A stretch of 64,000 nt of DNA. It comes from Polyangia bacterium. GTDB lineage: Bacteria > Myxococcota_A > Polyangia > JACRCY01. Position numbers and translations under genes: made by a program. A model generated the notes under the pieces. That model did not search any database, was not told where the DNA came from, and saw nothing but the letters and a program-made list of their open reading frames with translations. The DNA lies in the NCBI GenBank assembly GCA_036504295.1, contig DASXVK010000718.1, positions 339 to 64,338 of the forward strand, read 5' to 3'. Shown piece by piece: positions 9,939 through 61,398 of the stretch (the first letter of the stretch is position 1; the number at the start of each line of letters is the position of its first letter).

Positions 9939-10100
9939 GACGTGCTCCTTGCGCGGCCGTCGCCCCTCCGATCCCTCTATATGCGGCCGGGCGAGGGCTC
10001 GTACCACGCTCGCCGTCGAACGGGAGGCAAGGCGCTGGCGTTGCCCCCGCGCAGTGTGCGAACCTCGGGCGAGGCGCGGCGCTCGCGCCGAGGAGGGCCT

Positions 10101-15344: not shown

Positions 15345-15415
15345 GCGGGCGGGGGGTGTCCCCGCCCGCCCGGAGTCGCTAAGGTAGGCCACACGCCGGC
15401 CCGCTGCGGCCGGCG
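15345..15415 (+). other. Two GC-rich stem-loops in the sucA-sucB spacer
   Basis: GCGGGCGGGG-ggtgt-CCCCGCCCGC lies at 15345..15369, directly after the sucA stop. CGCCGGCC-cgctgc-GGCCGGCG lies at 15394..15415. There is no T-tract, so it is more likely an mRNA-stability or processing structure than a terminator. Confidence 0.35.
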
Positions 15416-15432
15416 CACCAGTCGAGGAGCAC

Positions 15433-26152: not shown

Positions 26153-26373
26153 CGTCCTCCGCTCAGGCCGCGCCCGCAGGCCGCGGGCCGGCGCATCTGC
26201 ACCGATGTTCGACGTACAGGTATGCGGAACACAAGGAGAAACCAGCGGCGGGCCGCCGCAAGTCCGCTCCGCGCGCGGCCGCGGTGCCACGTCACATGCC
26301 CCGGTCGTCATGCGGAGACCACGCGCGACCCGCCCGCGAGTTTCCTCGCGGCGAGCGGCGCCGGCCCCGGGCC

Positions 26374-27486
26374 CTACGCGACGCCCGCGACCCGCGCCGC
26401 GAGCTGCAGCGCGAACACCGCCATCGCCTTCTGCACGTCGAGGCCGGGCTCGCACAGCTTCAGCCCCATGCCCGTCGGCACGGTGCGGTCCGCCCGGGCG
26501 CTGAAGAGCTTGCGCCAGGCGACGCGCGCCCGCGCCGCGATCGGGGCCAGCCCCGGCGGCGTGAGCTCCATGTCGACGACGGCGTTGCCCGGCGGCGGCG
26601 CGATGGTGCGCACGAAGAGGCCCGAGATGCTGACGTTGTAGGACAGGCCGTGGCGCCAGCGGCCGCCCTCCTCGCGGAAGCGGACCAGCACCGCGCAGGG
26701 GAACCGCGGCGCGGCGCGCAGGCGGCCGTGATCGCGGATGGTGGCCTCGTTCGCGAGGAAGACCAGCTCGTCGGGCGGGCGGCGCGCGTCGTAGAGGTGC
26801 CGGAACCCGCTCTCGAGGGCCGCGGCGGCGGTCTCGGACGACACCTCGCCGTCGACGAGGAGGATGCCCGGCGGGGTCTCGCCCAGGCGCTCGCCGGCGA
26901 GCGCCAGGAAGCTCGTCGGCTCGCACCCCGGCAGGCGGTGGTCGAGCACCACGAGGTCGACCCCGTCCCCGTCCTCGAGGACCCTGAGCGCCTCGACGCC
27001 GTCGCCCACGCGGACGACGTGGAAGCCCGCCTGGCTCAGCAGGAACGTGAGCAGCCGGCCCCGGGTGGGCGCCGTGTCGGCGAGCAGCACGGTGCGCTGC
27101 TGCGACGGCGTGCCGAGCTGCGGCGCCTCGCTGGCCAGGGCGAGGTAGCCGCCCAGCTCGTGGTCGAGCTCGTCCTCGGCGAGCAGGTCGTCGGCGCCGA
27201 GCGAGGCCGCGCGCAGCGCGCCGTCGAGGCTGAGGGCGGGCACGATGGCGATGAGCGGCACGCCCTGCAGCGCCGGCGTGCCCTGCACCGCCTCGGTGAT
27301 CTGCGCGAGGTCCGGGGCCGCGAGGTGGACGAGGATCGCGTCGGGGCTCACGTCCTCGGCGGCGACGGCCTCGAGCTCGGCCGCGGTGGCCGCGAACCGC
27401 AGCACGCCGCTGGCGGCCTCCGCCGCGCCCTGCAGCGCGCGGTCGCGCGGTGTGAACGGGCCCAGGGCGAGGAACGAGCGCGGCAT
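26374..27486 (-). CDS. Pseudo-receiver + receiver + PilZ domain protein (predicted c-di-GMP binding)
   Basis: ATG is at 27486 (MPRSFLAL). The first REC-like domain has His where the phospho-Asp is expected (AILVHLAAPD). The second has DLVVLDHRLPG. The C-terminus carries the PilZ signatures RAAPR (RxxxR) and NVSISG (D/NxSxxG). Confidence 0.7.
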   Translation of the reverse strand: MPRSFLALGPFTPRDRALQGAAEAASGVLRFAATAAELEAVAAEDVSPDAILVHLAAPDLAQITEAVQGTPALQGVPLIAIVPALSLDGALRAASLGADDLLAEDELDHELGGYLALASEAPQLGTPSQQRTVLLADTAPTRGRLLTFLLSQAGFHVVRVGDGVEALRVLEDGDGVDLVVLDHRLPGCEPTSFLALAGERLGETPPGILLVDGEVSSETAAAALESGFRHLYDARRPPDELVFLANEATIRDHGRLRAAPRFPCAVLVRFREEGGRWRHGLSYNVSISGLFVRTIAPPPGNAVVDMELTPPGLAPIAARARVAWRKLFSARADRTVPTGMGLKLCEPGLDVQKAMAVFALQLAARVAGVA

Positions 27487-27529
27487 CCCGCGATGTTCCC
27501 ATTGCAGGCCGCGCGGCGTCAACCTCGCG

Positions 27530-28198
27530 CTACGGCGCCTGATCCCGCAGCTTCAGCCGCGCCTCGGGGAACGCGCGCCCCCACAGCCGGCGCGGTTTGC
27601 GCCCCTCGTCGCGCACCGCGGCCGCCGGCTGGAACGCGATCACCCCCATCCCGCAGTGGCTCACGACCAGCGACGCCGGCGGCGGCGTGTCGGCGTCCCG
27701 GCGCGTGAGCAGCTCGAGGAAGTCCGCGGCCTCGTAGAACCACAGCGCCCCGGCCCGGCACCCTACCTGCAGCTCGACGAGCCACGGCCCCAGCTGCGCG
27801 ACGACGTGGGTGGCCTTGCTGACCCAGCACTCGTGCGGCGCCGGCCGCCGCGCCGCGCGCTTGTAGAGCGCCATCGCGTCGACACCGGAGCGCAGCCGGC
27901 GGACCGTGATCGCCGCCTCCGCGAAGAGCTTCGGGTCGCGCGGCACGAGGGTGGCTTGCAGCCGCCACGGCTCGAGCTTGAGCTGCTTGAGCAGCCGATC
28001 CTTGGGGTCGCAGGTCGCCGGCTCCTCGGGGCCGCGCTCCAGCGCCACGACCACGCGCTTGTAGTGGCGGTAGAAGGTCTCGAGGTGCGCCTGCCACTCC
28101 GCCACGCCGGGCGGCGGAGGCTCGGCGCCGGCGGGCGCGGCCCGCGCGAGCAGAGCGAGCAGGACGGCGGCGAGCGCGACGGGGGTGCGGGCGCGCAT
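27530..28198 (-). CDS. Secreted hypothetical protein
   Basis: ATG is at 28198, with signal MRARTPVALAAVLLALLARAAPAGA. This is the last 222 aa of the otherwise spurious track ORF 27530..30265. Confidence 0.55.
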   Translation of the reverse strand: MRARTPVALAAVLLALLARAAPAGAEPPPPGVAEWQAHLETFYRHYKRVVVALERGPEEPATCDPKDRLLKQLKLEPWRLQATLVPRDPKLFAEAAITVRRLRSGVDAMALYKRAARRPAPHECWVSKATHVVAQLGPWLVELQVGCRAGALWFYEAADFLELLTRRDADTPPPASLVVSHCGMGVIAFQPAAAVRDEGRKPRRLWGRAFPEARLKLRDQAP

Positions 28199-36737: not shown

Positions 36738-37268
36738 ATGGAAATGAGCATGAGGTACTACTCGATCCTATTCAGCAGCAGCAAGACATTCGGAGTAGCC
36801 CGGTTCAATACGGAGGAGTTGCTCTTCCTTCCAGCTGACGGGCCGGTAGTGGGTTGGCAGCCGCTCACGGGCACACTGGGCAGAGGGGAGGAATCCGATT
36901 ACCTTGCGAGCAACCTGGCTTTCCGGATCTGTTCTGCTCGTATGCGCGCGATCTTAGAGGAGCTCGCGACCCCGGCCGATGTGCTCCAGTGGTTACCGGT
37001 TCACGTGGCGAACAGCCGGGCCGAACTGCGCGAGTACCACGTACTGCACTTTCCTGCTCCGCCCGACGTGATTGACCGCGACCGAAGCATCATCATGGAT
37101 GACGACGTCATCGTCAAAGTGCTACTTTGCGCCGAATCCGCGGCGCGCCATGCCGTGTTCTCCTATCCTGGCGGAGGGAGCACGACATTTCTTGTCAACG
37201 GGGAAGTAAAGAAGCGGCTGCAGAAGGCTGGTTGCACTGGGATCCAGTTCTTCCCTGAACCTCGGTGA
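36738..37268 (+). CDS. Imm11/DUF1629-like putative polymorphic-toxin immunity protein (orphan)
   Basis: GC content is clearly below the window average. The start is one of ATG 36738, 36744 or 36750 (MRYYSILF). Its organisation and C-terminal TFLVNGEVKKRLQKAGCTGIQFFPEP resemble DUF1629 family ends. The family call is tentative. Confidence 0.45.
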   Translation: MEMSMRYYSILFSSSKTFGVARFNTEELLFLPADGPVVGWQPLTGTLGRGEESDYLASNLAFRICSARMRAILEELATPADVLQWLPVHVANSRAELREYHVLHFPAPPDVIDRDRSIIMDDDVIVKVLLCAESAARHAVFSYPGGGSTTFLVNGEVKKRLQKAGCTGIQFFPEPR

Positions 37269-37650: not shown

Positions 37651-37771
37651 CATCCCTGCGTTCTGCCGGGTGTAGGGGTCTGGCACGACTCGTGCTTTCT
37701 TTTTGGCGGCGCGCCTCATGACGGCCCCGGTTCGCCATGGCATGTTGGAATCAGCGCGCGGTGGGAGCGAC

Positions 37772-38314
37772 ATGAGCGAGACCACACCCGCGCAGTCCGC
37801 ATCCGAGGCGCTGACGCTCGTGAGCTACGGCGGCGCGAGCCGCCCCATTCTCTTCATTCGTGGCTGCAAAGTGATGCTCGACGCCGACCTCGCCTCGCTC
37901 TACGGCGTCCGGACCTCTGCGCTGGTGCAGGCGGTCAAGCGGAATCGCTCGCGGTTTCCCTCGGACTTCATGTTCCAGCTCACAAGCGAGGAGGTCGCGG
38001 TCTTGAGATCACAGTCTGTGATCGCAAGATCGTGGGGCGGCCGACGCACGTCGCCGTATGCCTTCACCGAGCAGGGCGTGGCGATGCTCTCGAGCGTGCT
38101 ACGGAGCGAGCAGGCCGTGCAGGTGAACATCGAGATCATGCGGGCATTCGTGCGCCTGCGCGAGCTGCTGGCGTCCAATGCCGATCTCGCTCGGAAGCTG
38201 GCGGCGCTCGAACAAACGTACGACGCCCAGTTCAGGGCGGTGTTCGACGCGATCCAGGCGCTGATGGCGCCGCAGCCCCGGCCGAAGGCGAGGATCGGCT
38301 TTCACCCGAAGTAG
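37772..38314 (+). CDS. ORF6N (KilA-N-related) DNA-binding domain protein
   Basis: ATG 37772 follows [51 protein letters not shown]...[42 protein letters not shown] matches the ORF6N family signature almost motif for motif. Confidence 0.8.
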
Positions 38315-39565: not shown

Positions 39566-39766
39566 ATGGCGCACCGACCCGCGACCGTGAAGAAGACCTA
39601 CAATCTACCGCCTGACCTCGTAGCCCGCGCGCGCCGGATCCTTCGCGCAAAGACCGAGACCGAGGCTATCATTCGGTCCCTCGAGCAGGTCTCGGCCGGG
39701 CAGGAGATCGAGCGAGCGATTCGCAAGGCTGGCAGCCGGCTCCCCGCGTTCGGCCCCTTGCGGTGA
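39566..39766 (+). CDS. vapB: Type II antitoxin, VapB family
   Basis: It is 66 aa. YNLPPDLVARARRILRAKTETEAIIRSLEQV resembles the VapB antitoxin fold. Its stop overlaps the toxin start (GTGA). Confidence 0.7.
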   Translation: MAHRPATVKKTYNLPPDLVARARRILRAKTETEAIIRSLEQVSAGQEIERAIRKAGSRLPAFGPLR

Positions 39767-40209
39767 AGGTCATCTTCGACACTTCGATCTGGGTCGAGCA
39801 GCTCCGTCGTTCCGCGCTGGATCCGCTCCTTCCCCTGCTCCGGGGCAAGCACCAGATCTGGATGGACGGCCTCGTCGCAGCCGAGCTGCTCGCGGGGTGC
39901 CGGTCGAGGATCGAGCGCCGCGTCGTCGATGGACTGCTGTCGCCGTTTCGCCGAACTGGACGGCTGCTCGCGCTCGGCGAAGGCCCGCTCCGCGCTGCCG
40001 GTGTCGCGCTCTCGAAGCTGCGCGAGGGCGGCCTGACGCTGAAGAACCCGGGCGCGGCCCTGCTGGACGCGATGATCGCCGCGACGGCCGTGCACCAGGG
40101 CGCGCTCCTCGTCACCCTGAACTCCGGCGACTTCGCCAAGCTTCGCTCCCAGCTCGCCCTGACCGTCGAGAGCCTCGACGAGTTCGCGGCGCGGCTCGCG
40201 GCCACGTAG
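39763..40209 (+). CDS. vapC: PIN-domain ribonuclease toxin VapC
   Basis: MKVIFDTSIWVE carries the first acidic residue. ...AAELL...DAMIAATAVHQGALLVTLNSGDF has typical PIN spacing. Confidence 0.8.
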   Translation: MKVIFDTSIWVEQLRRSALDPLLPLLRGKHQIWMDGLVAAELLAGCRSRIERRVVDGLLSPFRRTGRLLALGEGPLRAAGVALSKLREGGLTLKNPGAALLDAMIAATAVHQGALLVTLNSGDFAKLRSQLALTVESLDEFAARLAAT

Positions 40210-50900: not shown

Positions 50901-51032
50901 TACACCTACCTCGCCCGCGCGACGAGCCTCGGGCGGTTCGTCGTGGCGCCGGTGAAGGCGGAGGAGATGTACCACCCGGAGACGTTCGGCCGGTCGGCGA
51001 CGACGGTGGTGGAGGTGCGGGCCAAGCGTTGA
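44931..51032 (+). CDS. Bacterial alpha-2-macroglobulin family protein with an intact thioester
   Basis: It is 2033 aa with an N-terminal signal. The thioester motif YPYECTEQTASR has CTEQ at nt 49527..49538. The context is MG-domain-like beta-rich sequence. Confidence 0.9.
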   Translation: MRTARFVLLFVVVLNCAHGERARSLPPPGADPFAGLAPLARDEPQPFTFRPGAPPPPTTTRVEPLPFPPASQRAPASRPSVAPTPLKVLRSQPTGENALVGAVTVTFNQPMVPVASLAELATRAAPLVLAPAVKGRFRWLGTQTLAFEPDGRMPFGTEYTASVPAGTRATSGARLERAEQWRFATPRPELRRALPAAYTDQARPDTAVALELNQPVAAAELLRRLTLAGIPGRDLVVVPRAEWAALPDLGAAIARLDPERTIVLRPRRPLAAGAWQHVTIAAGLRGEGGRPSLRALHHPFSTYRPLKVEEIACGDRWRCNPAQGVMVRFNNPLAPAAGAPVVTVTPAPRDLDQEPGASWVMLRGDFDPRTAYTVTVKAGPVDVHGQKLGADVRRTLRTGDITPEVRFPAQNVTALERRGTRQVPLEVRGLGGARLRLVAVDPAQLMTLIERLRSPWGYGQGRGDPLARIKGLRPARHLVTGVGRNGKTTLGLPTDEALGPSGAGTVFAEVRADGLRRDDRWANPYRLALVQVTDVGIMARYDEDQIVAFATSLESAAPLAHAAAELRDRTGEVIWRGATDADGVVRAPGRRVLGKPAPYALWIRHADDRAFALLDGAGDDHGYNGTYAHASAIPPKETLRLHLFTDRSPYRPGDKVHVKGLLRVVGTTARGEVTGLPPGVGRVEYEVLSARDAKIAAGTLALTKSGSFTVDVTLPPAADLGAYRVRVKPAAGPFPDWVAGAFQVEEYRAPEYAVKVEPGAGPHFQGGTLAARVGADYLFGAPMAGAACAWTLSRAGARFSPPGHEGFSFGDPEAWRPDWRVVDGPRRHREGWRRGFSLARDGADGDIVASGEGVLDARGRLAVGAKLAADPQAKTVGPLAFTLEAQVIDRNRQSIASRATIVAHPAARYVGLRPDRTVVRAGERVSVQAVLADLDGRRQPGAALTIEAALVTTKVTPVQEGDGWTYKYEDHERRAASCAVTTAARPEACALALPRPGGYRLRAEATDEAGRRTRTSVWVYAAGPGYVPWRLENASQLELVPDKREYRPGETARILVKSPITPAVGLLTVMRGGIDEARRVRFEGTAPIVEVPIRAYHLPEVHVGLSLARGRVTDGSLGAAAEDLGRPALAHGTVRLPVVLDERRVTVTVAPARPTARPRDRLTVALRTTDAAGRPVRGDVAVMVVDEGVLSLLRYATPDPLAVFYAARGAGAPLVDLRSALLGRREDLKLARLHASRRRGHANQALARGAFALRGHGGHGAGGGGLGGPPKAVASPDAAAAPGGPEEAKAERLDDLTTGADEARTKSAGPTWQARTLFATTAYFNPAVATDADGRAQLTIPLPDNLTTFRIMAVAADEARPDRFGHGEAQVTVRKPLLVRPSLPRFLSVGDRFEAAVMVHNDTGAAGVATVLARGRNVGLAGDLRREVRIPAGEGREVRFPLSALHAGPARLQLAALLGRERDAAEVQVPVLLPVTTEAFATYGMTEGSVRQPVVPPAGALPGYGGLEVSLASTALNGLEDAVRQLVEYPYECTEQTASRVMPIFSLGKILAEFRLAAVADQGARKALAARGVSRLVAQQRYDGGWGYWDGARLSWPYVSAYATYALLRGKESGEAVPAAALTRARAFLKDRLDHPLTQYYEHLDYTSQTASAWVLGELGQHERGHLARLYNKRGELPLFARAWLMTALFRAEGRSGRVRALLRDLDNAAIQTAATARFAEHATESLRVLMHSDDRTDAIVLRALLEVDPGHPLMPKVARGLLDGRIKGAWSTTQANAYALVALARYYRQVERAVPDFAAGLWYGDGALGQAAFKGREMKAVAHEVSLAALARLGARDLTLAKTGPGALYYRIGLRYAPADLRLPPEEQGLSVSRVYEPIRDAAGQREDTVRRGPDGTWEITAGATVRVRVVVVVPDQRYYVAIADPLPAGLEAVNLGFVTSARSRLGGELDDRTYDVWSWYALLAFDHRELRDDRAVLFADRLPAGVYEYTYLARATSLGRFVVAPVKAEEMYHPETFGRSATTVVEVRAKR

Positions 51033-51165
51033 CGGCCAAACCCCTCCTCACAGCCCCCGCAGCCCCTCCGGCTTCAACGGGATCCGGCCCGCGACCGCCG
51101 CGTCGAGCAGCGCGAGACTCGCGCGAGGCTGCGCCGCCGCGGGCCGCGATCCCCAGGGCCTCGGT

Positions 51166-51549
51166 TTGTGGTACGCTGCCTCGGTGCGCAAGGTGGTCTT
51201 GGCGGTGTCCGCCGCGAGCCTGGTGGTGGCGGGGATCGCGCTCATGAACCAGGTCCGCGGGGGGCCGCCGAAGCCGCGCGAGGTCGCCCAACCCCTCACG
51301 GACGTGGCGGCCAAGGCTCCGGCGATAGACGTCGACCCGAGCGAGGCGCCCGAGCGGCGCCTGGCCCGGCTCGCCCCCTCCTCGCAGGCCGTGCGGCCCG
51401 CGGTGCCGCCGGCGGAGATGCCCGACCCGGCGCGACCCCCGCAGTGGACCAAGACGCTCGCGGCGCCGGGACCGCCGCAGCCGCCCGATCCGTTCGTGCC
51501 ACCGCCCATCGCCGTCGATCCGGATCGGGGGCGCCCGCCGGCGCCGTGA
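51166..51549 (+). CDS. Membrane-anchored Pro-rich hypothetical protein
   Basis: It starts with TTG and has one N-terminal helix (VVLAVSAASLVVAGIALM) followed by a Pro-rich tail. Coding status is uncertain. Confidence 0.4.
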   Translation: MWYAASVRKVVLAVSAASLVVAGIALMNQVRGGPPKPREVAQPLTDVAAKAPAIDVDPSEAPERRLARLAPSSQAVRPAVPPAEMPDPARPPQWTKTLAAPGPPQPPDPFVPPPIAVDPDRGRPPAP

Positions 51550-51588
51550 CGGCCGTGAGGTCTTCCGCCGCGCCAGCGTGAGCCGACC

Positions 51589-53133
51589 ATGCGCCCCATC
51601 CTCCTCGCCCTGCTCGCCGCCGCGCTGGCCGTCCTCGCAGCGCCGCCGTTCGACCTGTGGCCCCTGGCCCTCGTCGGCCTCGGCCCGCTGTACCTCGCCG
51701 CGCGCGCGGTCTCGCCCTGGCGCGCCGCCGGCCTGGGCTGGCTCGCGGGCACCGCCGCGAACCTCGCCGGCCTGAGCTGGGGGGTCGGCCTCCTCGAGAC
51801 CTTCGTCCACCTCGGGCGCCCGTCGGCGATCACGGTGACCGTCGCGGCGTGCGTGTACCAGGGGCTGGTGTGGGCGCTCTGGGCCGGGGCGTGCCGACTG
51901 CTCGCGCGCCGTACCGGGCTCGCTTGGCTCGTGAGCGGGCCGCTCGTCCTCGCCGTCATCGAGGCCACGGTGCCGTTCGTCTTCCCCTGGTACTTCGCCA
52001 TCACCGCGGCGCGGGCCTGGCCGCTCGCCCAGGTCGCCGAGCTCGGCGGGCCGGTGGCGGTCTCGGCGCTGCTCGTGCTCATCAACGTGATCGTCGTCGA
52101 CCTCGGCGCGGCGGCGCTGCAGCGCGAGCGGGCGGCGCGGGATCTCCGCGTCGCCGCCGTGGTCGCGGCCGCGGTCCTCGTGGTGGGGCTCGCGCGCGCC
52201 GGCCACGTCGCATGGGCCCGCGGCCGCGCGCCGGCGCTGCGCGTGGGCGTGGTGCAGCCGAACTTCGGCATCGTGTCGCAGGAGGCGCGCAAGCACACCG
52301 GCCAGCGCTACATCGAGGGCCTGCGCGCCGTGACGGGCGAGCTGGCGGGGCAGGGCGCCGAGCTGATCGTCTGGCCCGAGTCGGCGTTCCCCTTCCTCTT
52401 CGACCGGCAGCTCACCCGCGAGTACGCACCCGGCCACCCGTGGGAGCTGCGCCCGCCGCACCGGGGCCGGCTGCTCGCCGGCGCCCTCACGCACCAGTTC
52501 GATCGGCCCTATGTCTTCAACAGCGCCGTCCTCTTCACCGCGGACCGGAAGGTGGCCGGCATCTACGACAAGAACCACCTCCTCGCCTTCGGCGAGTACA
52601 TCCCGTTCGCCGACTCCTTCCCGGACTGGGCCGGGCGCATGCGTGCCCGGCTGCCCGATTCGCCGGACATCGAGCCCGGCGCCGAGCCCCTCATCCTCGT
52701 CGACGGCGCGCTGAGGGTGGCCCCGCTCATCTGCTACGAGGACATCCTGCCCGCGGCCGTGCACCGTGCCGCGCGCCGCGGCCCCAACCTCCTCGTCACC
52801 CTCGCGAACCACGCCTGGTTCGGCGGCAGCGGCGCGCCGCGCCAGGCGGCGGTGCTCGCCCACTTGCGCGGCATCGAGACGCGCCGCGACCTCGTGCGCG
52901 CCACCAACACCGGCGTCAGCACCATCGGCGACGCGCTCGGCCGCATCCGGGGCGCGAGCGACCTCGTCGAGATCCCGCGCGACCAGCCGGGGCGGCCCAC
53001 GACGCTCGCGGGCGAGGTGCGCCTGGTCGAGACCTTCGCGCTCGGGCCCTACACCGCGCCGGTGTTCCCGTGGGCCTGCTGCGCCGGTCTCGTGCTCGCC
53101 GCCGTCCGCGCCCGGCGGCGCCGGCCGTCGTAG
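51589..53133 (+). CDS. lnt: Apolipoprotein N-acyltransferase
   Basis: A multi-TM N-terminus is followed by a nitrilase-like domain with VWPESAFP, AVLF..DGK..YDKNHLLAFGEYIP and the catalytic Cys in ICYEDILP. Confidence 0.9.
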   Translation: MRPILLALLAAALAVLAAPPFDLWPLALVGLGPLYLAARAVSPWRAAGLGWLAGTAANLAGLSWGVGLLETFVHLGRPSAITVTVAACVYQGLVWALWAGACRLLARRTGLAWLVSGPLVLAVIEATVPFVFPWYFAITAARAWPLAQVAELGGPVAVSALLVLINVIVVDLGAAALQRERAARDLRVAAVVAAAVLVVGLARAGHVAWARGRAPALRVGVVQPNFGIVSQEARKHTGQRYIEGLRAVTGELAGQGAELIVWPESAFPFLFDRQLTREYAPGHPWELRPPHRGRLLAGALTHQFDRPYVFNSAVLFTADRKVAGIYDKNHLLAFGEYIPFADSFPDWAGRMRARLPDSPDIEPGAEPLILVDGALRVAPLICYEDILPAAVHRAARRGPNLLVTLANHAWFGGSGAPRQAAVLAHLRGIETRRDLVRATNTGVSTIGDALGRIRGASDLVEIPRDQPGRPTTLAGEVRLVETFALGPYTAPVFPWACCAGLVLAAVRARRRRPS

Positions 53134-53176
53134 CCGTCCCCCTTGGCGGCGCCCGAACGGCGCCGTATGGTGAGCC

Positions 53177-53518
53177 ATGCACGGAGGCCTCCGCACCATG
53201 TGCCGCGTCTGCAGCGTCCTCGCGCTCTTCGGCCTGGCGCCGCTCGCGAGCTGCACCGAGTCGAACCACCGCTTCCTCCAGGACCTCGACGTGTGGTGCC
53301 GCATCAACACGACGGTCGAGGCGGACCCGGCCATCAAGCCCGCGGACAAGGCCCACGAGATCGGGCGCCGGTTCCGCGCCACGAACCCGTCGCCCGAGTT
53401 CCAGACCTTCTCCTACAAGCTCATCGGCAAGAGCGAGGCCCAGGCCTACCAGATGATCAAGGACGAGGCGGCGCGCCGCGGGCGCAAGGGCTGGGAGTGC
53501 CCGGCGCTGAAAAAGTAG
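53177..53518 (+). CDS. Small lipoprotein, hypothetical
   Basis: The signal carries a lipobox (LAPLASC). The mature part is charged. Confidence 0.55.
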   Translation: MHGGLRTMCRVCSVLALFGLAPLASCTESNHRFLQDLDVWCRINTTVEADPAIKPADKAHEIGRRFRATNPSPEFQTFSYKLIGKSEAQAYQMIKDEAARRGRKGWECPALKK

Positions 53519-53637
53519 TCAGCGGCCGGTGACGATCGCCGCGATCGGCCTGTTCAAGGTTCAAACATTGAACTTCACGCCGTCCAATTCTTGGACGCTC
53601 GTTGCCGTAAGTCCTTAGAAACCCGTGATGTGTCCTG

Positions 53638-53653
53638 TGGCACAGTGCCTGCT
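53638..53653 (+). promoter_or_regulatory. Sigma-54-type -24/-12 promoter element upstream of the RHS gene
   Basis: TGGCAC-agtgc-CTGCT differs from the consensus TGGCAC-N5-TTGCW at one position only, with GG and GC correctly spaced. It lies 58 nt upstream of ATG 53711, in a locally AT-richer leader. Confidence 0.5.
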
Positions 53654-53710
53654 TGTCGCGCCCACATGCCTTGTACGGAGTACCAGCCCCATCCGCAGGG
53701 AGGCAGATCG

Positions 53711-56700
53711 ATGCGACATCGCCAGGGCATCGCTTCCACGGCCACCACGCTCCTCGTTGCGCTCGCGCTCACCGGCTCAGCCCCGCCGGCCGCGGCGCAA
53801 GGCAGCGTGGACTCGTACTACGGGTCCTTCGCGACCGAGGTGCCGATCGCGGTCCCGGAGTTCCACGGCCTCGCCCCCGACGTCAAGCTCGTCTACTCCT
53901 CGACGGGCGGCAACGGCATGGCGGGGGTCGGCTGGTCGGTGACCGGCTCGTCCTACATCGCGCGGGCGAGCGCCGGCAAGGGCGTGCCGCGGTATGACGG
54001 CGGCGACATCTTCTTCCTCGACGGCCAGGAGCTGGTGCCGTGCGGCACGCTCGGCGGCACGCACTGCACGAAGATGCAGAGCTTCCAGCGCATCACCTGG
54101 GACGGTGGCGCGAACGCCTGGTACGTCTGGCGCAAGGACGGCACCAAGGCGACCTACACCGCGCTCAACCAGACCGCGCAGGGCACCTTCCGCTGGGCGC
54201 TGGCGCGCGTCCAGGACCCGCGCGGCAACGCCGTCACCTACGGCTACTGGTGCGACGGCGGCAACGAGTGCTACCTCGAGACGATCAGCTACAACGGCAC
54301 GACCATCACGTTCTTCCGCGAGGGGCGCCCCGACCCCGTCACCTACGCGATCGGCGGCTCCACGACCTGCTACGACACCTGCTACGACACCTGCTACTCG
54401 CAGTGCTGCGCCGGCTACGACAAGTACGGCAGCTGCAGCTCCTGGTACGACTGCAACCCGGTCCAGTGCAACGCGCACCAGTGCAACCCGCACGCCTGCC
54501 CCGGCCAGGGCATGGGCAAGGTCAACTACCGCCTGCGCAGCATCTTCGTCTGGATGCCGGGCGTCTCGCACGTCCGCGCCTACCGACTGAGCTACGGCCA
54601 GGACGCGCTCGGCCAGTCGCTGCTCACGAACGTCCAGCAGTACGGCCGTGACGTCACCCACGACGGCGCCGGCCTCATCAACGGGGGCTCGGCGCTGCCG
54701 GCGACGAGCATGGGCTACGAGAGCGGCGGCTTCTCCTTCGCCGGCGGCAGCATGGGCTGGCCCACCGGCGGGTACGTCTCCATCGACCGCGACACCACCG
54801 GCGACCAGCGCGACGGCGGCATCGCCTTCGCCGACTTCAACGGCGACGGCAAGCTCGACATCGTGTGGTCGATGTGGGAGTGCAGCGGCTGGTTCGGCGG
54901 CGGCTGCGCCGCGCACAACGAGATCCTCATCAACACCGGCAGCGGCTTCGTCCCCGGCCCGAGCTGGCCGACCTCGGGCTATCTCTCGATCGACAAGGAC
55001 TCGAGCGGCAACCAGCAGGACGGCGGTGTCCGCCTGCTCGACCTCAACGGCGACGGCAAGACCGACATCGTCTGGTCGCTCTACAAGTGCAACGGCTGGT
55101 ACGGCAGCGGCTGCGCCGGCTACAACGAGGTGTGGCTCTCGACGGGCAACGGCTTCGTGCGCGGCCCGAACCTGCCGACCGGCGGCTACGTCTCCATGGA
55201 CAAGGGCGGCGGCCAGACCGTCGACGGCGGCGTCCGCTTCGCCGACATCAACGGCGACGGCCTCCCGGACCTCGTATGGTCGATGTGGGAGTGCACCGGC
55301 TGGTACGGCGACGGCTGCCAGGCCCACAACGAGATCTGGCTCAACACGGGCAACGGCTGGACCCCCGGCCCCGGCTGGCCGACCTCGGGCTACATCTCGA
55401 TCGACCGCGGCGGCGGCGACCAGCGTGACGGCGGCGTGCGCCTCGTGGACATGAACGGCGACGGCAAGGCCGACGTCGTCTGGTCGCTGTACAAGTGCAA
55501 CAGCGGGTGGTACGGCGCCGGCTGCGCCGGCTACAACGAGATCTGGCTGTCGACGGGCAGCGGCTGGGTGGCCGGGCCGACCTGGCCGACCGCGGGCTAC
55601 GTCTCCATGGACGGCGACTCGACGGGCAACCAGCAGGACGGCGGCATCCGCTTCGCCGACATCAACGGCGACGGCAAGATGGACATCGTCTGGTCGCTGT
55701 GGGAGTGCCGCGACGGCTGGTACGGCGCGGGCTGCTCCGGCCACAACGAGATCTGGCTCAACGCCGGCAACTTCTTCACGCCCGGGCCGGCCTGGCCCTC
55801 GGGCGGCTACATGGCCATCGACGGCTGGAACGGCTACGTCCAGGACGGCGGCATGCGCCTCGTCGACCTCAACGGCGACGGCAAGGCCGACCTCGTCTGG
55901 TCGATGTGGGAGTGCACCGGCTGGTACGGCGCCGGCTGCCAGGCGCACAACGAGGTGTGGCTCTCGACGGGCACCGGCTTCGCCTCGGGGCCGGGCTGGC
56001 CGACCGCGGGCTACATCGCCCTGGACCGCGGCAACGGCGAGATGCGCGACGGCGGCATCCGCTTCGTCGACATCAACGGCGACGGCAAGCAGGACCTCGT
56101 CTGGTCGATGTGGAAGTGCAACGGGTGGTTCGAGGGCGGCTGCGCCGCCCACAACCAGATCATCCTCGGCGCCGGCGGCCGCGACCTCATGACCTCCATG
56201 ACGAACAACGCCGGCGGGACGACCGACGTCACGTACGTGCCGTCGACGGCGTGGGCGAACACCGCCATGCCGGCGGGCCTCGTGCTGCAGACCGTCGCGT
56301 CGGTGCGCACCGGCGACGGCCGCACCGCCTCGTCCACGGCGAGCTACCGCTACGAGGGCGGCCTGTGGTCGAACGCGGAGCGCCGCTTCCTCGGCTTCCG
56401 CAAGGTGACCGCGGTGCTCGACGCGGCCGGCAACTACACCGAGACCTACTACCACCAGCACGTCGGCTGCATCAGCAAGCCGGAGGCGACGTACTTCCGG
56501 GACGCGGCCGGCAACATCTTCAGCTACTCGACCTACGGGTACCAGGAGAACGGGGCCCCGCCGTACACCTCGCTCCTCACCGACCGGTGGGACTACGAGT
56601 GCAACCAGTCGGGGAGCTGCAAGCGCGTGGTGACGCAGCTCGGCTACGACGGCTACGGCAACGCCACGACCACCTACGAGTACGGCGACTACGACGCCTC

Positions 56701-59700
56701 TGGCGACGAGCGCACGGCGGTGCGCGGCTACTACCCGAACTGGGGCAGCTACATCGTCGGCCTGGCCGCCTACGAGAACGTCTACGCCGGCATCGGCACC
56801 GGCGGCGAGCTCGTCAAGCAGAGCCTCTACGAGTACGACGCGAACACCACCTACGCCGCGGCGCCCACGGTCGGCAACATGGCCCGCGTCAAGATGTGGG
56901 ACAGCTCGACCAGCGGCTACTCGACGACGAGCAGCACGTACGACCAGTGGGGCAACCGGATCTCGCAGACGGACCAGGTCGGCAACACGACCACCTTCTC
57001 GTTCGATCCGACCTACCACCTCTATAACATGGCGAGCTGCAGCCCCCTCGGTCACTGCTCCAGCCGGAGCTGGGACGCGGTGCTCGGCGTGCGCAGCGCC
57101 GAGACCGACGTCAACGGCTACACCACGACCTGGGCCCACGACGCCTTCGGCCGCGTCACGCAGGAGACGCTGGCGAACGGCAACGTCTCGACCCACCAGT
57201 ACCTCGACTGGGGCAACCCGTCGTATCAGCGCACGCGCAGCACGATCTGGGACGGCACCAGCGACGGGCAGTGGGAGGAGACCTACCAGGACGGCATCGG
57301 CCGCAAGTACCGGGTGGCGAAGAAGGCGCCGGCGGCGAGCCCGGCCACCTGCTACGACACCTGTTACCAGACCTGTTACGACCAGTGCTACGACAGCTGC
57401 GCGGGGACGTACTACAACTGCAACCCGCACAGCTGCAACCCGTACAGCTGCAACCCGCACGCGTGCGGCGGCACCGCCGCCGGCGTCCTCACGAAGGACA
57501 CGATCTTCTCCGACGCCTCGAGCCGCGTGTGGAAGCAGTCGGCGTGGTACGCCGCCGGCGAGACGCCGAAGTACGAGCTGTACGCGTACGACGGCGCGGG
57601 CCGGCTGCGCACCGTCACGCACCCGGACGGCGCCGCGGCGCAGCGCTACTACGGCAACGGCTACGTCCTCGACTACGACGAGCTCGGCCACGAGCGCGTG
57701 GTGTGGAAGGACGCGTTCGGCCGCGTCTCGCAGATCCGCGAGCGCAACGCCGGCGCCTACGCCTACACGACCAAGCAGTTCGACGTGCTCGGCCGCCTGC
57801 TGCGCCAGGTCGACGCGGCCGGCAACGTGACCACCGCGGCCTACGACTCCCTCGGCCGCAAGTACAGCGAGTGCACGCCCGACACCGGCTGCACGAGCTA
57901 CGCCTACGACGCCGCCGGCCGGCTGCTCCGGCAGACCGACGCCAAGGGCCAGACCATCACCCACACCTACGACGCCCTCAACCGCATCAAGACGCGCGCG
58001 ACGGCGACCGAGAACGCGGTCTTCACCTACGACGAGGCGGGTTACGGCGCGAGCAAGGGCCACCTCACGACCGTGACCACCGGCAGCACGTCGGAGAGCA
58101 ACACCTACGACTTCGCCGGCCGGGTCGTCGCCTCCACCCGGTGCGTCGCGGGCATCTGCTACACCATCGGGCGCGCCTACGACGCCGCCGGGCGGCTCGC
58201 GAGCGTCACCTACCCGGACGGCGAGGTCGTCACCTACGGCTACGACGCGACCTCGCGCCTCACGAGCGTCAGCGGCTACGTCACGTCGATGACCTACGAC
58301 GCCCGCGGCCACCTCGTCGGCGCGGCGTACGCCAACGGCACGACCGGCAGCTTCGCCTACGACGCGAACCGGCAGTGGCTGACGAGCGCGGCGTGGAACG
58401 GCCCCGCGGGCGCGCTCTTCCAGGCGAGCTACGGCTACGACGCCGACGCCCACCTCGTCTCGATGGCCTCGACGACGAACCCGCTCGCGACCGCGACCTT
58501 CGGCTACGACGAGCTGAACCGCCTCACGAGCGTCAGCGGCGGCCAGAGCCACAGCTTCGCCTACGACTGGCTCGGCAACATCACGAGCAACTCGGCCGTC
58601 GGCGCGTACGCCTACGGCGACGCCGCGCACCGTCACGCGGTGACCGCCGCGGGCACGAACGCCTACGCCTACGACGCGAACGGCAACATGGTCTCGGGCG
58701 CGGGCCGCACCATCGCCTGGGACGCGCACAACCGGCCCGTGGGCGTCACGAAGAACGGCCAGACCACGACCTACGCCTACGACGCCCTCGGCGCGCGCGT
58801 CATGAAGAGCGGCCCGGCCGGCACCTCGTACTACTTCGGCTCGCTGCTCGAGGTGAGCGGCGGCAGCCTGGTGAAGTACTACTTCGCCGGGCCCATGCTC
58901 GTCGCCAAGCGCGACGCCACCGGGCCGTACTGGTACCACCAGGACCACCTGTCGTCGGTGCGCGTCCTCACGAACGCGTCCGGCCTGAAGGTGCGCGGCT
59001 ACGACTTCGCGCCCTACGGCGAGCAGGTCGCCACGAGCGGCGCGACCAGCAACACGGTCGGGTGGGGCGGCCACCGGCTCGACGACGAGAGCGGGCTCGT
59101 CTACATGAACGCCCGCTACTACGACCCGCAGCTCGGCCGCTTCCTCTCGGCGGACTCGGTCGTGCCCGACGAGGTGAACCCGCAGGCGCTCAACCGCTAC
59201 GCCTTCGCCTACAACAACCCGATCTCGAACACCGACCCGACCGGCCACGTGCCCGTCGTCGCGGCCATCATCGTCGTCGCCACGGTCGCGGCCTCGACCG
59301 CGCCCGCCTGGGTCCTCGCGGTGGCCGTCATCGGCGCCGCCTGCACCATCGCCGGGTACGTCCTCAAGGACCCGCTGCTGATGACGCTCGGCAGCATCGC
59401 GCTCGGCTTCGCCGGCGGGTTCGTGGGCGGGGCCGGGTTCCTCGCCGGGCCGGGGATGGCCGGAGGCATCGTCTCAGCCACCGTGGCGGCGATCACGTCG
59501 CCGCTGAGCCCGCTCGATCCGGGGATCAAGCAAGCCATCGGCTGGATCTACACCGCCCAGGGCCTCATCTTCACGGCGAAGAAGTTCCTGTCGCAGGAGC
59601 GGGACCTCGAGGGCTGCGGCGGGGCGAAGGAAGGCCGGTCGGCGGCGAGCGCGGCGGAGGCCAAGGCGAAGGTCGACCAGCTGCTCAAGGATCACCCGGG

Positions 59701-60181
59701 TGGCGTCGACGCGAAGCTCGTCTACGGCGACATCATGTCGAGCGACACGGCGACCAAGGTCGGCCTGCAGCACTCGACCGTCGGCCTCTACGACCACCAG
59801 ACCGGCGAGTGGCTCGGCGAGATCGGCGGCAACCCCGGCGGCTCGGGCCTCTACCTCGGCGGCGTCGAGCCCGGCCACGCGAACTACATGTGGTCGATCT
59901 CGAACGTCTCGAAGGACCAGCTCTACCGCGCCATCGACGCGGCCTACTCGGTGCGCGACTCGCTGGGCGGCTACGGCCAGAACTGGGTGTGCCACAACGT
60001 GGCGGCCCGCATCTCGCGCGAGCTCGGCAAGGCGTACGACTGGTCCCTGGTCGGCGGCGGCGAGGCGGCCTGGGCCGAGTTCGGCTACGGCCGCCGGTAC
60101 TGGGGCTGGAACTGGAGCGCCGGCAGCGGCCTGAACGCGCTCCTCATGCTCGGCAAGGGCGCGGCCGCGGTCCAGGACTGA
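53711..60181 (+). CDS. Secreted SpvB-domain + FG-GAP-like propeller + RHS/YD-repeat cocoon protein (TcB-TcC-like fusion) with a C-terminal cargo domain
   Basis: ATG 53711 follows GGGAGG, with signal peptide MRHRQGIASTATTLLVALALTGSAPPAAAQG. The SpvB-like part includes VKLVYSSTGGNGMAGVGWSV. Seven FNGDGK-type repeats follow, then a TcdB-mid-like YRYEGGLWSNAERRFLGFRKV and many YD repeats (YDAAGRL, YDALGR, YDANGN). The RHS core ends YYDPQLGRFLSADS...NPISNTDPTGH and is followed by 310 more residues. Confidence 0.9.
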   Translation: MRHRQGIASTATTLLVALALTGSAPPAAAQGSVDSYYGSFATEVPIAVPEFHGLAPDVKLVYSSTGGNGMAGVGWSVTGSSYIARASAGKGVPRYDGGDIFFLDGQELVPCGTLGGTHCTKMQSFQRITWDGGANAWYVWRKDGTKATYTALNQTAQGTFRWALARVQDPRGNAVTYGYWCDGGNECYLETISYNGTTITFFREGRPDPVTYAIGGSTTCYDTCYDTCYSQCCAGYDKYGSCSSWYDCNPVQCNAHQCNPHACPGQGMGKVNYRLRSIFVWMPGVSHVRAYRLSYGQDALGQSLLTNVQQYGRDVTHDGAGLINGGSALPATSMGYESGGFSFAGGSMGWPTGGYVSIDRDTTGDQRDGGIAFADFNGDGKLDIVWSMWECSGWFGGGCAAHNEILINTGSGFVPGPSWPTSGYLSIDKDSSGNQQDGGVRLLDLNGDGKTDIVWSLYKCNGWYGSGCAGYNEVWLSTGNGFVRGPNLPTGGYVSMDKGGGQTVDGGVRFADINGDGLPDLVWSMWECTGWYGDGCQAHNEIWLNTGNGWTPGPGWPTSGYISIDRGGGDQRDGGVRLVDMNGDGKADVVWSLYKCNSGWYGAGCAGYNEIWLSTGSGWVAGPTWPTAGYVSMDGDSTGNQQDGGIRFADINGDGKMDIVWSLWECRDGWYGAGCSGHNEIWLNAGNFFTPGPAWPSGGYMAIDGWNGYVQDGGMRLVDLNGDGKADLVWSMWECTGWYGAGCQAHNEVWLSTGTGFASGPGWPTAGYIALDRGNGEMRDGGIRFVDINGDGKQDLVWSMWKCNGWFEGGCAAHNQIILGAGGRDLMTSMTNNAGGTTDVTYVPSTAWANTAMPAGLVLQTVASVRTGDGRTASSTASYRYEGGLWSNAERRFLGFRKVTAVLDAAGNYTETYYHQHVGCISKPEATYFRDAAGNIFSYSTYGYQENGAPPYTSLLTDRWDYECNQSGSCKRVVTQLGYDGYGNATTTYEYGDYDASGDERTAVRGYYPNWGSYIVGLAAYENVYAGIGTGGELVKQSLYEYDANTTYAAAPTVGNMARVKMWDSSTSGYSTTSSTYDQWGNRISQTDQVGNTTTFSFDPTYHLYNMASCSPLGHCSSRSWDAVLGVRSAETDVNGYTTTWAHDAFGRVTQETLANGNVSTHQYLDWGNPSYQRTRSTIWDGTSDGQWEETYQDGIGRKYRVAKKAPAASPATCYDTCYQTCYDQCYDSCAGTYYNCNPHSCNPYSCNPHACGGTAAGVLTKDTIFSDASSRVWKQSAWYAAGETPKYELYAYDGAGRLRTVTHPDGAAAQRYYGNGYVLDYDELGHERVVWKDAFGRVSQIRERNAGAYAYTTKQFDVLGRLLRQVDAAGNVTTAAYDSLGRKYSECTPDTGCTSYAYDAAGRLLRQTDAKGQTITHTYDALNRIKTRATATENAVFTYDEAGYGASKGHLTTVTTGSTSESNTYDFAGRVVASTRCVAGICYTIGRAYDAAGRLASVTYPDGEVVTYGYDATSRLTSVSGYVTSMTYDARGHLVGAAYANGTTGSFAYDANRQWLTSAAWNGPAGALFQASYGYDADAHLVSMASTTNPLATATFGYDELNRLTSVSGGQSHSFAYDWLGNITSNSAVGAYAYGDAAHRHAVTAAGTNAYAYDANGNMVSGAGRTIAWDAHNRPVGVTKNGQTTTYAYDALGARVMKSGPAGTSYYFGSLLEVSGGSLVKYYFAGPMLVAKRDATGPYWYHQDHLSSVRVLTNASGLKVRGYDFAPYGEQVATSGATSNTVGWGGHRLDDESGLVYMNARYYDPQLGRFLSADSVVPDEVNPQALNRYAFAYNNPISNTDPTGHVPVVAAIIVVATVAASTAPAWVLAVAVIGAACTIAGYVLKDPLLMTLGSIALGFAGGFVGGAGFLAGPGMAGGIVSATVAAITSPLSPLDPGIKQAIGWIYTAQGLIFTAKKFLSQERDLEGCGGAKEGRSAASAAEAKAKVDQLLKDHPGGVDAKLVYGDIMSSDTATKVGLQHSTVGLYDHQTGEWLGEIGGNPGGSGLYLGGVEPGHANYMWSISNVSKDQLYRAIDAAYSVRDSLGGYGQNWVCHNVAARISRELGKAYDWSLVGGGEAAWAEFGYGRRYWGWNWSAGSGLNALLMLGKGAAAVQD
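54758..56179. repeat. Seven tandem 68-70-codon coding repeats (propeller blades)
   Basis: Repeat starts are at track-ORF residues 390, 459, 528, 596, 665, 735 and 803. Each has WPT.GY.S.D......DGG.R..D.NGDGK.D.VWS...C.GW.G.GC..(H/Y)NE. Confidence 0.8.
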
Positions 60182-60202
60182 CCCACCCCTGAGGAGCTGT
60201 CA

Positions 60203-60244
60203 GCGGGCGGCGGGCCTACGGGGGGCTCCCGCCCGCGTCTTTTG
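60203..60244 (+). terminator. Rho-independent-type terminator after the RHS gene
   Basis: GCGGGCGG (60203..60210) pairs with CCGCCCGC (60229..60236) and is followed by GTCTTTTG. It begins 22 nt after the stop codon. Confidence 0.55.
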
Positions 60245-60306
60245 TCCGCGGCCTCACCCGCCCACCCGCGCGTGCACGCGCTGCCCCTCTGGGGTATCCT
60301 GACACG

Positions 60307-61398
60307 ATGGGGACCGCCTCCGGAGGCGCGCTGCTCGCCGGCAAGTACGAGCTCGTCGAGCCCGCCGGCGCGGGCGGGATGGCGACGGTGTGGCGCGGCC
60401 AGATGCACGGCGCGGCCGGGTTCGTGCGGCCGGTCGCGGTCAAGCGCATCCGGCCCGAGCTGCTCATGGCGCCGGACTTCGTCGTGATGTTCGTCGAGGA
60501 GGCGCGGCTCGGGTCGCAGCTCCTGCACTCGAACATCGCGCAGGTGTACGACTTCGAGCAGGAGGACGACGGCGCCTACTTCCTGGTGATGGAGTGGGTC
60601 GAGGGCATCGACCTCCGGCGCTACGTGCGCACCTACGCCGAGGGCGGGCAGCGCACGCCGTGGCCGCTCGTCACCGCGGTCGCCGTCGAGACGCTGCGCG
60701 GCCTGGGCGCGGCCCACGAGCGCGTCGACCCGCTCGGCCAGCGGGCGCCGGTCATCCACCGCGACGTGACGCCCCAGAACATCCTGCTCGGCACGAACGG
60801 GCTCGTGAAGCTCACCGACTTCGGGCTCGCGCGGGCCATGGACCGCGCCCGCACCACCCACCCCGACATCGTCAAGGGCAAGCTCGCCTACCTCGCCCCC
60901 GAGGTCGCGAACGGCCAGCCGGCGACGGTGCAGAGCGACCTCTTCAGCCTGGGCGTGGTGCTGTGGGAGGGCCTGGCCGGGCGGCCGCTGTACCACGGCG
61001 TCACCGACATCGAGGTGCTGCTCAAGGTGCGCGCCGTCGACGTGCCGCCGCTCACCGCCGTGCGCGACGACCTGCCGCCCGAGCTCTGCGCGGCGGTCGC
61101 GCGCGCGCTCGCGCCGCAGCCCGCGGACCGCTTCGGCTCGGCGCGCGAGCTCCTGCGCACGCTGACGCGGATCCTGCGCGGGGTCAGCCACTCGACCGAT
61201 TCATACGCGCTCGCGCACAGCGTGATCGAGGCGCGCTGCATCCTCGGCGCGCCGCCGCGCGACATCTTCGTCCCCCCGCCGGCGGCCACGCCGCCGCCGG
61301 TGCCGCCCCCGCGGCGCCGCGTGTCGCACACCGACCCCGTGATCGCGACCGACCGCGTGCTCGACAGCCTCCTCGGCCGGCCCGGGCGCAAGCGCTAG
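60307..61398 (+). CDS. Eukaryote-like Ser/Thr protein kinase (kinase domain plus a short Pro-rich tail)
   Basis: It has a Gly-rich loop (GAGGMATVW), VAVK, the catalytic loop HRDVTPQNILL, DFGLAR and APE (LAYLAPE). Confidence 0.9.
   Translation: MGTASGGALLAGKYELVEPAGAGGMATVWRGQMHGAAGFVRPVAVKRIRPELLMAPDFVVMFVEEARLGSQLLHSNIAQVYDFEQEDDGAYFLVMEWVEGIDLRRYVRTYAEGGQRTPWPLVTAVAVETLRGLGAAHERVDPLGQRAPVIHRDVTPQNILLGTNGLVKLTDFGLARAMDRARTTHPDIVKGKLAYLAPEVANGQPATVQSDLFSLGVVLWEGLAGRPLYHGVTDIEVLLKVRAVDVPPLTAVRDDLPPELCAAVARALAPQPADRFGSARELLRTLTRILRGVSHSTDSYALAHSVIEARCILGAPPRDIFVPPPAATPPPVPPPRRRVSHTDPVIATDRVLDSLLGRPGRKR

Follow-up and report, generated by a model that had tools for sequence, protein, structure and literature searches.

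A putative Sec-exported RHS cocoon toxin of the TcdB/TcaC class with a rare cargo domain and a candidate lipoprotein immunity gene

Introduction

The TcdB/TcaC class of polymorphic toxins, for which Sorangium cellulosum sce3516 has been cited as an example (Zhang, Aravind et al. 2012; PMC3482391), is encoded on the chromosomes of delta-proteobacteria/Myxococcota, with immunity genes expected alongside. Here we describe a member of this class encoded at positions 53711–60181 (forward strand) of a 64,000-nt stretch of DNA from a Polyangia bacterium (contig DASXVK010000718.1), the whole of which we refer to as the window. Three better-characterized groups of shell-forming toxins frame the comparison. 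Tc toxins are described as being assembled in the cytoplasm and released by lysis (type 10 secretion system, T10SS; PMC10847048). The bacterial teneurin-like proteins (TLPs; PMC13018210, 2026) are a sister family of Sec-dependent YD-shell toxins enriched in Myxococcota; the C-terminal domain (CTD) of one of them, BiTLP, sits inside the shell and permeabilizes Escherichia coli only when exported to the periplasm. In Tse5, the Rhs shell hands the C-terminal fragment (Tse5-CT) over to the target membrane, where the fragment forms pores (PMC10684867). How Sec-exported RHS/YD-shell toxins exit the producer and open on the target is an acknowledged open question (PMC13018210).

From the sequence of the locus, we consider it fairly probable that the gene encodes a self-contained, Sec-exported antibacterial RHS cocoon toxin of the TcdB/TcaC class that acts on the cell envelope and is carried on a Myxococcota-like chromosome. 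The class itself is known and populous; what is new here is the cargo domain.

Results

Architecture of the toxin

The open reading frame (ORF) runs from ATG 53711 to TGA 60181 on the forward strand and encodes 2156 residues, and an identical product is recorded for the contig (P0002; JGI 3300035523). Although the longest open frame begins at TTG 53591, we take ATG 53711 as the likelier start because a ribosome-binding site, GGGAGG (53698–53703), lies 7 nt before it. Pfam and NCBIfam profile scans of the 2156-residue protein give the following domain calls, to which the signal peptide was added by eye.

53711–53797, + strand: Sec-type signal peptide, residues 1–29, read from the sequence by eye, with predicted cleavage between AAA and QG.
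53819–54745, + strand: SpvB/TcB-type N-terminal domain (Pfam SpvB, residues 37–114, E 1.8e-14).
54746–56260, + strand: seven-bladed FG-GAP beta-propeller (Pfam FG-GAP 9e-27, FG-GAP_3 2e-24).
56042–56458, + strand: TcdB_toxin_midN segment (Pfam PF12256, residues 778–916, E 3.6e-34).
56459–59008, + strand: RHS/YD-repeat shell (seven RHS_repeat matches, E 2.6e-45, with YD_repeat_2x and RHS_core).
59009–59248, + strand: RHS-associated core with aspartyl autoprotease motif (Rhs_assc_core TIGR03696, residues 1767–1846, E 8.8e-22).

The N terminus, MRHRQGIASTATTLLVALALTGSAPPAAA followed by QG, reads as a Sec/SPI signal (a reading of the sequence rather than a predictor output), and the orthologue P0003 has an equivalent N terminus. 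The domain that follows matches the N-domains of SpvB (6p0x) and YenB (4igl) in a sequence search of the PDB. The propeller consists of seven blades of ~68 residues, visible in the DNA as 204–210-nt repeats, and a conserved Cys pair (W.C..W[YF]G.GC) is present in all seven; the toxin contains 49 Cys in total. The TcB propeller is six-bladed, as opposed to the seven FG-GAP repeats counted here. For the shell, a sequence search of the PDB returns Rhs 8h8a, BiTLP 9pt5, type VI secretion system (T6SS) Rhs proteins and TcdB2-TccC3 as relatives; Rhs and TLP shells are the closest solved structures by sequence. The core ends in NPISNTDPTGH(1846) followed by VPVV, and the autoprotease residues R1802, D1815 and D1842 are intact in an alignment to the catalytic residues R2103, D2116 and D2140 of BiTLP, with cleavage predicted after H1846.

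A sequence-only reading of this DNA had described the product as a 2156-residue fused TcB–TcC-like cocoon with a cleavable signal peptide, and as regards domains that reading is correct. The coordinates and product agree with the ORF call and record P0002, and a Sec-type N terminus is present by inspection. Pfam confirms both the SpvB/TcB-type N-domain and the propeller, the profile matches and the three residues in place (R, D and D) bear out an RHS shell ending in NPISNTDPTGH, and the cargo behind that motif is indeed 310 residues long. The proposed TcdB-mid segment is half borne out, with a clear midN (E 3.6e-34) and no match to TcdB_toxin_midC in the Pfam scan of the toxin, so that midC alone is missing from the SpvB, TcdB-mid and RHS-core domains named for profile searching. 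The combination of domains is not anomalous: it is what defines the TcdB/TcaC class (PMC3482391), and it is abundant in Myxococcota. A full-protein search returns 1194 proteins with the same domain set at E<=1e-20, mostly from Myxococcota (Archangium, Cystobacter, Polyangia), often several per genome, with a few from other phyla. Judged by its sequence, the toxin is a member of this class.

Two Cys-rich inserts interrupt the toxin, one in a loop of the SpvB-like domain (residues 220–265, nt 54368–54505) and one in a loop of the RHS shell (residues 1214–1254, nt 57350–57472). They are related (CYDTCY...CNPHAC.G, ~45 residues each, DNA 77–80% identical), and both are missing from the 66%-identical orthologue P0003. 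Three other proteins among 123 compared carry the CNPH.C motif. The inserts look like a duplicated disulfide-knot module that was inserted twice.

The cargo opens with a conserved hydrophobic module

The 310 residues behind the predicted cleavage site fall into three parts.

59249–59611, + strand: cargo part 1, cargo residues 1–121, a hydrophobic helical module conserved in the family.
59636–60046, + strand: cargo part 2, approximately cargo residues 130–266, a rare alpha/beta domain.
60047–60181, + strand: C-terminal tail, cargo residues 267–310 and the stop codon, Gly/Trp-rich and predicted disordered (pLDDT 31–41).

The first part is found in 55 of the 85 homologues that have a recognizable cleavage motif, whatever domain comes after it. 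It consists of four hydrophobic helices (Kyte-Doolittle 1.6–2.8), the second and third of which are joined by a conserved K-D-P turn, and then an amphipathic fifth helix; cargo residues 1–89 contain two charged residues only. The AF2 model of the module is helical, with pLDDT 92–98. Its signature reads TSPLSPLDP..K..IGW.YTA, in which SP.SPL (S84, P85, S87, P88, L89) and G98 are invariant in the family alignment, and K94 and W99 are kept in at least 90% of the aligned sequences. Profile and sequence searches with the module gave no match in Pfam, NCBIfam or the PDB. We considered homology to the BiTLP CTD, to which the alignment extends by 55 residues past the cleavage site; this extension was discounted because a profile of the module does not retrieve BiTLP.

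Beyond the common module, the C-termini vary among paralogues. This variation, which is that of polymorphic toxins, the intact autoprotease residues and the immunity-like gene linked to the locus (see below) all speak against the idea that the protein serves cell-surface recognition or adhesion, in a teneurin-like social function with toxicity secondary or lost. Such a protein would be attached to the envelope through its hydrophobic C-terminal helices or a proline-rich partner. In its favor are the adhesion-type superfold of propeller and shell, a reported link of TLPs and RHS proteins with social behavior (PMC13018210), and hydrophobic helices that could anchor in the membrane after Sec export. 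On balance, we regard a primary role in adhesion as improbable.

The second part of the cargo is a rare domain with invariant His and Cys-His residues

A full HMMER pass with the terminal cargo domain over 1.84 billion representative sequences found a single cluster (P0001), the cargo of which is ~61% identical to that of the toxin. The orthologue P0003 is 66% identical to the toxin overall and 83% in the cargo, and P0039 is a distant relative of part 2 (27% identity, E 4e-8). H2021 and C2094-H2095 are invariant. The cargo has no Pfam match at E<=10 and none in NCBIfam, and a profile of part 2 searched against PDB sequences gave chance matches only.

A Foldseek search with the fold of the whole 310-residue cargo gave noise, and the putative enzyme domain was then modeled alone (AF2 pLDDT 74, pTM 0.75, from an alignment of four sequences). 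In these models, the Cys lies at a helix N terminus. The Foldseek matches comprise Aichivirus 2A (7zv1; E 0.13, TM 0.56), a cysteine peptidase of Bacillus cereus (3kw0; E 0.69), a Marseillevirus "lecithin retinol acyltransferase" (LRAT; E 0.12), a Tupanvirus protein (E 0.002) and a kobuvirus polyprotein, so that the resemblance to H-box/NC and NlpC-P60-like proteins is weak but recurrent. As in LRAT/PLAAT and the permuted NlpC/P60 proteins (e.g. Aichivirus 2A, 7ZV1), the His precedes the Cys in sequence, and the AF2 models place the Cys at the N terminus of a helix packed on a beta-sheet. Part 2 differs from LRAT/PLAAT in having WVCHNV in place of the NCEHF motif and in lacking sequence-profile similarity, and the second catalytic His is not conserved in the relative P0039. 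An hhalign comparison of part 2 with human PLAAT3 (from an approximate sequence) gave a probability of 0.2%. Given weak, recurrent structural matches on the one hand and negative sequence profiles on the other, we propose only tentatively, as the less probable case, that the modeled domain is a permuted papain-like (LRAT/NlpC-P60-like) hydrolase.

P0001 itself (L002:1–1480) lacks ~440 residues of the RHS shell relative to the toxin of the window, jumping from approximately residue 1250 to 1690, and its ORF runs off the start of the L002 contig. Deletion, degeneration of the copy or an assembly artefact could account for this.

A lipoprotein gene accompanies the rare cargo

The gene that precedes the toxin encodes a small lipoprotein.

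53198–53518, + strand: candidate immunity protein, a 106-residue lipoprotein with a signal peptide and the lipobox LAPLAS followed by C; GC content at third codon positions (GC3) 0.98.

The stop of this gene and the start of the toxin gene are 192 nt apart. In L002, an ORF (1547–1867) that begins 66 nt downstream of P0001 encodes a lipoprotein 67% identical to that of the window (blastp E 1e-55), and a profile search of 5.8 billion proteins finds these two family members only. The lipoprotein thus adjoins this cargo type in both of the carrier loci that could be inspected, in two genomic contexts. A tblastn search found no homologue in L001, the contig of P0003, or in L008, and metagenome scans with the lipoprotein alignment and with the cargo-domain alignment returned no further loci. 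The adjacency of two very rare genes in two contexts is, at the level of sequence, strong evidence of a functional linkage, and the lipoprotein is probably the cognate immunity protein, for which we consider it the candidate.

These observations modify what had been said of the neighborhood. The earlier statement that no immunity gene adjoins the toxin holds for the downstream side, where the gap of 60182–60306 is, as had been noted, too short for a gene. It fails on the upstream side, where the candidate at 53198–53518 is linked to the cargo in L002; immunity probably resides in this immediate neighbor and not at a distant site in the genome. A non-bacterial target had also been suggested, and the candidate points instead to an envelope-acting, antibacterial or self-protective role over a eukaryotic target. 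Small ORFs that overlap the 3' end or lie antisense to it were considered and set aside: long open frames occur there, as they should at 70–75% GC, and their boundaries differ among the three carriers.

It may also be that the toxin is used against prey or distant competitors and that enclosure in the shell is the sole self-protection, the lipoprotein being unrelated or an accessory envelope protein. Myxobacteria are predators, an upstream position is unusual for an immunity gene, and for many members of the family, tandem Archangium paralogues among them, no small gene is evident nearby. Set against this are the co-occurrence of the lipoprotein with the cargo type in two contexts, when both are otherwise virtually absent from databases, and the behavior of the sister TLPs, whose shell did not protect the producer and for which immunity genes were needed (PMC13018210). 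We judge protection by the shell alone to be unlikely and retain the lipoprotein as the immunity candidate.

The tandem arrangement is seen in Archangium violaceum (L003; CP137851, 9.08–9.10 Mb), where three tandem BC-type toxin genes share one cargo type, with no small gene between the first two. The N-terminal match of the third copy begins ~950 nt upstream of its called start.

A proline-rich gene and lnt travel with the toxin genes

Two more genes lie on the same strand, and the order in the window is proline-rich gene, lnt, lipoprotein gene and toxin gene.

51166–51549, + strand: small proline-rich protein of 127 residues with an N-terminal hydrophobic anchor; gene call in L005.
51589–53133, + strand: apolipoprotein N-acyltransferase Lnt (Pfam LNT_N and CN_hydrolase; TIGR00546 228 bits, cut-off 133).

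The proline-rich protein belongs to no Pfam or NCBIfam family and is marked by the motifs PLTDVA, PPQWT and PPDPF.PPPIAVDP.RG. Its homologues adjoin BC-fusion genes in L003 (Archangium violaceum), L004 (two copies), L006 and L008 (tblastn E 6e-32 to 5e-21; 4e-6 for the partial copy in L008). Both copies in L004 lie just upstream of a toxin gene, the proline-rich gene having been duplicated together with the toxin gene. Among species-representative genomes, the proline-rich query finds six loci: a BC gene adjoins it in five, and a contig end truncates the sixth; lnt follows directly after the proline-rich gene in four of these. Lnt is adjacent to proline-rich or toxin genes in L003, L004, L009, L010, L011 and L014, and the order proline-rich gene then lnt is conserved beside BC-type toxin genes across Myxococcota genomes. 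The view that the toxin is without a partner is contradicted by the gene at 51166–51549, which recurs beside toxin genes, as does lnt. The proline-rich protein may serve the toxin, Lnt or both, and this membrane protein is our leading candidate for an accessory role. In L004, the second toxin gene and lnt are separated by a gene for a membrane-anchored protein with a SurA-N-like chaperone domain (14746–15432; Pfam E 2e-5, just under the cut-off), which has no counterpart in the window.

The partners expected of related toxins are a different matter. Pfam scans of ~37 ORFs across the window found no TcA (VRP1/TcA_TcB_BD), PAAR/VgrG/Hcp or TpsA/TpsB, in agreement with the sequence-only reading, which had seen no TcA, T6SS or two-partner secretion gene in these 64 kb. 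No DUF1795 (the Eag chaperone), PAAR, VgrG or Hcp was found in the toxin or in the scans of the window, and the Pfam lists of seven related loci with gene calls include no TcA-type domain. These negatives bear on whether the gene encodes the BC part of a tripartite Tc (ABC) toxin directed at eukaryotes (insects, nematodes, amoebae), with TcA elsewhere in the genome. SpvB, propeller, TcdB_midN and RHS core are TcB–TcC parts, TcC genes are known to occur as "orphans" apart from TcA (PMC7861908), there is one Sorangium entry in the tables of a Tc survey, and the searches cover the 64-kb window and seven related loci, so that the rest of the genome could hold a TcA. However, a Sec signal peptide and Cys-pair-rich blades fit poorly with cytoplasmic assembly and release by lysis as set out in PMC10847048. 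No TcA-type domain appears in the Pfam scans of the window or in the Pfam lists of the seven related loci, sequence resemblance to TcdB2-TccC3 and YenB does not go beyond the N-domain and core, and the lipoprotein linked to the cargo looks like immunity. We therefore hold a tripartite Tc toxin to be very improbable here.

Transcription signals and genomic setting

Two intergenic features flank the toxin gene.

53519–53710, + strand: upstream gap of 192 nt, containing GGGAGG (53698–53703) and the palindrome GTTCAAacaTTGAAC (53559–53573).
60203–60245, + strand: G+C-rich hairpin of 14 pairs (60203–60236), 22 nt after the stop, followed by TCTTTTGT.

The upstream gap is relatively A+T-rich, and its palindrome, GTTCAAacaTTGAAC, could be a regulator site or chance. 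The gene had been credited with a promoter-like element of its own; a sigma-70 scan of 51000–61000 found no promoter-like site, leaving an own sigma-70 promoter unsupported. The stem-loop and T-tract reported 22 nt after the stop are there, as the hairpin 60203–60236 and the TCTTTTGT behind it, and they plausibly form an intrinsic terminator; a simple terminator scan did not call this hairpin because the T-run is short. The next ORF is, as stated earlier, a Ser/Thr kinase gene, with its ATG at 60307, 125 nt past the toxin stop.

The window has ~75% G+C and the toxin gene 0.69–0.71. We considered recent horizontal acquisition and rejected it, because GC3 stays host-like at 0.97 and the dip stems from first codon positions (GC1 0.59) and hence from amino-acid composition. 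The neighbors are chromosomal or housekeeping genes, including 2-oxoglutarate dehydrogenase genes and genes for M16 peptidases, a C69 peptidase and alpha-2-macroglobulin, along with Lnt, the Ser/Thr kinase, glycerol-3-phosphate dehydrogenase and an FGGY kinase.

Farther away, an orphan Imm11-family immunity gene (36738–37265, + strand; Pfam E 9.4e-6, above the cut-off) lies in a patch of lower GC with ORF6N and PIN genes (37703–38311 and 39616–40206). In L001, the toxin gene stands directly after the C69 peptidase gene, at approximately the position of this patch in the window, and the patch may be the relic of an earlier toxin cassette. A very large ORF on the minus strand (18758–26300) consists of HYDIN/ASH-type Ig-like repeats (Pfam E 9e-80) and probably encodes a giant protein of the cell surface; its open frame continues over a PilZ response-regulator gene (26374–27552). 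An Eco57I-like DNA methylase gene (9941–12559, + strand) abuts sucA, and a weak remnant of an IS200-type Y1 transposase is found at 2127–3251 (− strand).

Discussion

Proposed mode of action

Beside the architecture, conservation and genetic linkage documented above, we infer every step of trafficking and activity as follows. The toxin would be exported by Sec, and would fold and form its disulfides in the oxidizing envelope or outside the cell, a compartment suggested by the 49 Cys and the Cys pair in each blade. The core would cut after H1846, the cargo remaining enclosed in the shell. At the target envelope, the hydrophobic helical-hairpin module would partition into the membrane and either damage it directly or carry the attached enzyme domain there, by analogy with the hydrophobic C-terminal parts of Tse5 and BiTLP. 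The enzyme domain would then act from the periplasmic side on phospholipid or peptidoglycan as its envelope substrate, and the periplasm-facing lipoprotein, from the gene 192 nt upstream, would shield the producer. TcA would not be used; delivery may follow an undescribed route, as the sequence-only reading had suggested and as has been said of the sister family (PMC13018210).

Several points weigh against this mechanism. The module and the BiTLP CTD are not demonstrably homologous, and four transmembrane-like helices near the end of a Sec substrate would be expected to stop transfer, in which case the cargo might be anchored in the inner membrane of the producer rather than enclosed by the shell. 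The enzymatic assignment of part 2 is weak: the AF2 model rests on four sequences and the Foldseek matches are weak ones (E 0.002–0.7, TM 0.4–0.56). The immunity assignment draws on two loci, the contig of P0003 (L001) ending 123 nt past the stop, and the lipoprotein gene lies upstream here as opposed to the usual downstream position of immunity genes. Immunity may not be universal in the family either, since no small gene is interleaved among certain paralogues that carry other types of cargo, the three tandem Archangium genes being one case.

A more specific proposal concerns delivery. The module and the proline-rich membrane protein, possibly with the linked Lnt, might do the job of TcA and so provide a built-in, TcA-independent route, in which the module would take variable enzyme domains from the BC-type cocoon into or across the target membrane and the proline-rich protein would hold the propeller to the envelope of the producer or gate it there. 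We regard this as a doubtful extension of the mechanism set out above. Independent of it, a conserved hydrophobic module ahead of many different toxin domains and a proline-rich membrane protein that, with Lnt, travels with toxin genes across Myxococcota each provide a handle on delivery, and the toxin domain and lipoprotein make a rare, clean pair. The module and the proline-rich/Lnt/toxin neighborhood are modestly new leads on this question; neither is described in the TcdB/TcaC literature consulted. The gene, Tc-like and at first sight without a partner, proves to be an ordinary representative of a large family of myxobacterial toxins.

Comparison with known systems

The TcdB/TcaC class has the same signal peptide, SpvB domain, integrin-like (FG-GAP) beta-propeller, RHS repeats and variable C-terminal toxin. 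Our toxin departs from it in a cargo that lies outside the catalogued toxin families (no Pfam match) and in an immunity candidate that is upstream.

The BC subcomplex of Tc toxins (TcdB2-TccC3, 4O9X/6SUF; YenB-YenC2, 4IGL) likewise has an SpvB-like domain, a propeller, a TcdB mid segment and an RHS cocoon with aspartyl autoproteolysis and a cargo of ~30 kDa, the enclosure of which we infer for our toxin, and fused BC proteins also occur among Tc toxins. The differences are the Sec signal peptide and Cys-pair-rich blades of our toxin, the absence of TcA from the 64 kb, the hydrophobic helical module with which its cargo opens, and a similarity confined to the N-domain and core (E 3e-11 and 3e-4): TcdB2-TccC3 matches at the core alone (residues 1749–1856), and YenB and SpvB match at the N-domain alone.

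With BiTLP (9PT5/9IFO), the toxin shares a C-terminal part that is hydrophobic and, by prediction here, cut at the RHS core and enclosed, and that in BiTLP is toxic from the periplasmic side. TLPs also have adjacent immunity genes and no known delivery machinery (PMC13018210). They carry FN-plug and NHL domains, usually with a TIP domain, instead of SpvB, FG-GAP and TcdB_mid, their CTDs average ~15 kDa as against 31 kDa here, and their immunity gene is downstream. BiTLP aligns with the shell and core of the toxin alone (residues 1568–1901), and the N-terminal layout of TLPs is not encountered in it.

Tse5 (RhsP1) of Pseudomonas aeruginosa (8CP6; PMC10684867, PMC9637101) resembles the toxin in combining an Rhs shell with a hydrophobic C-terminal fragment, which in Tse5 forms pores and is handed to the target membrane by the shell itself. 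It differs in being a T6SS effector that has no signal peptide, SpvB domain or propeller.

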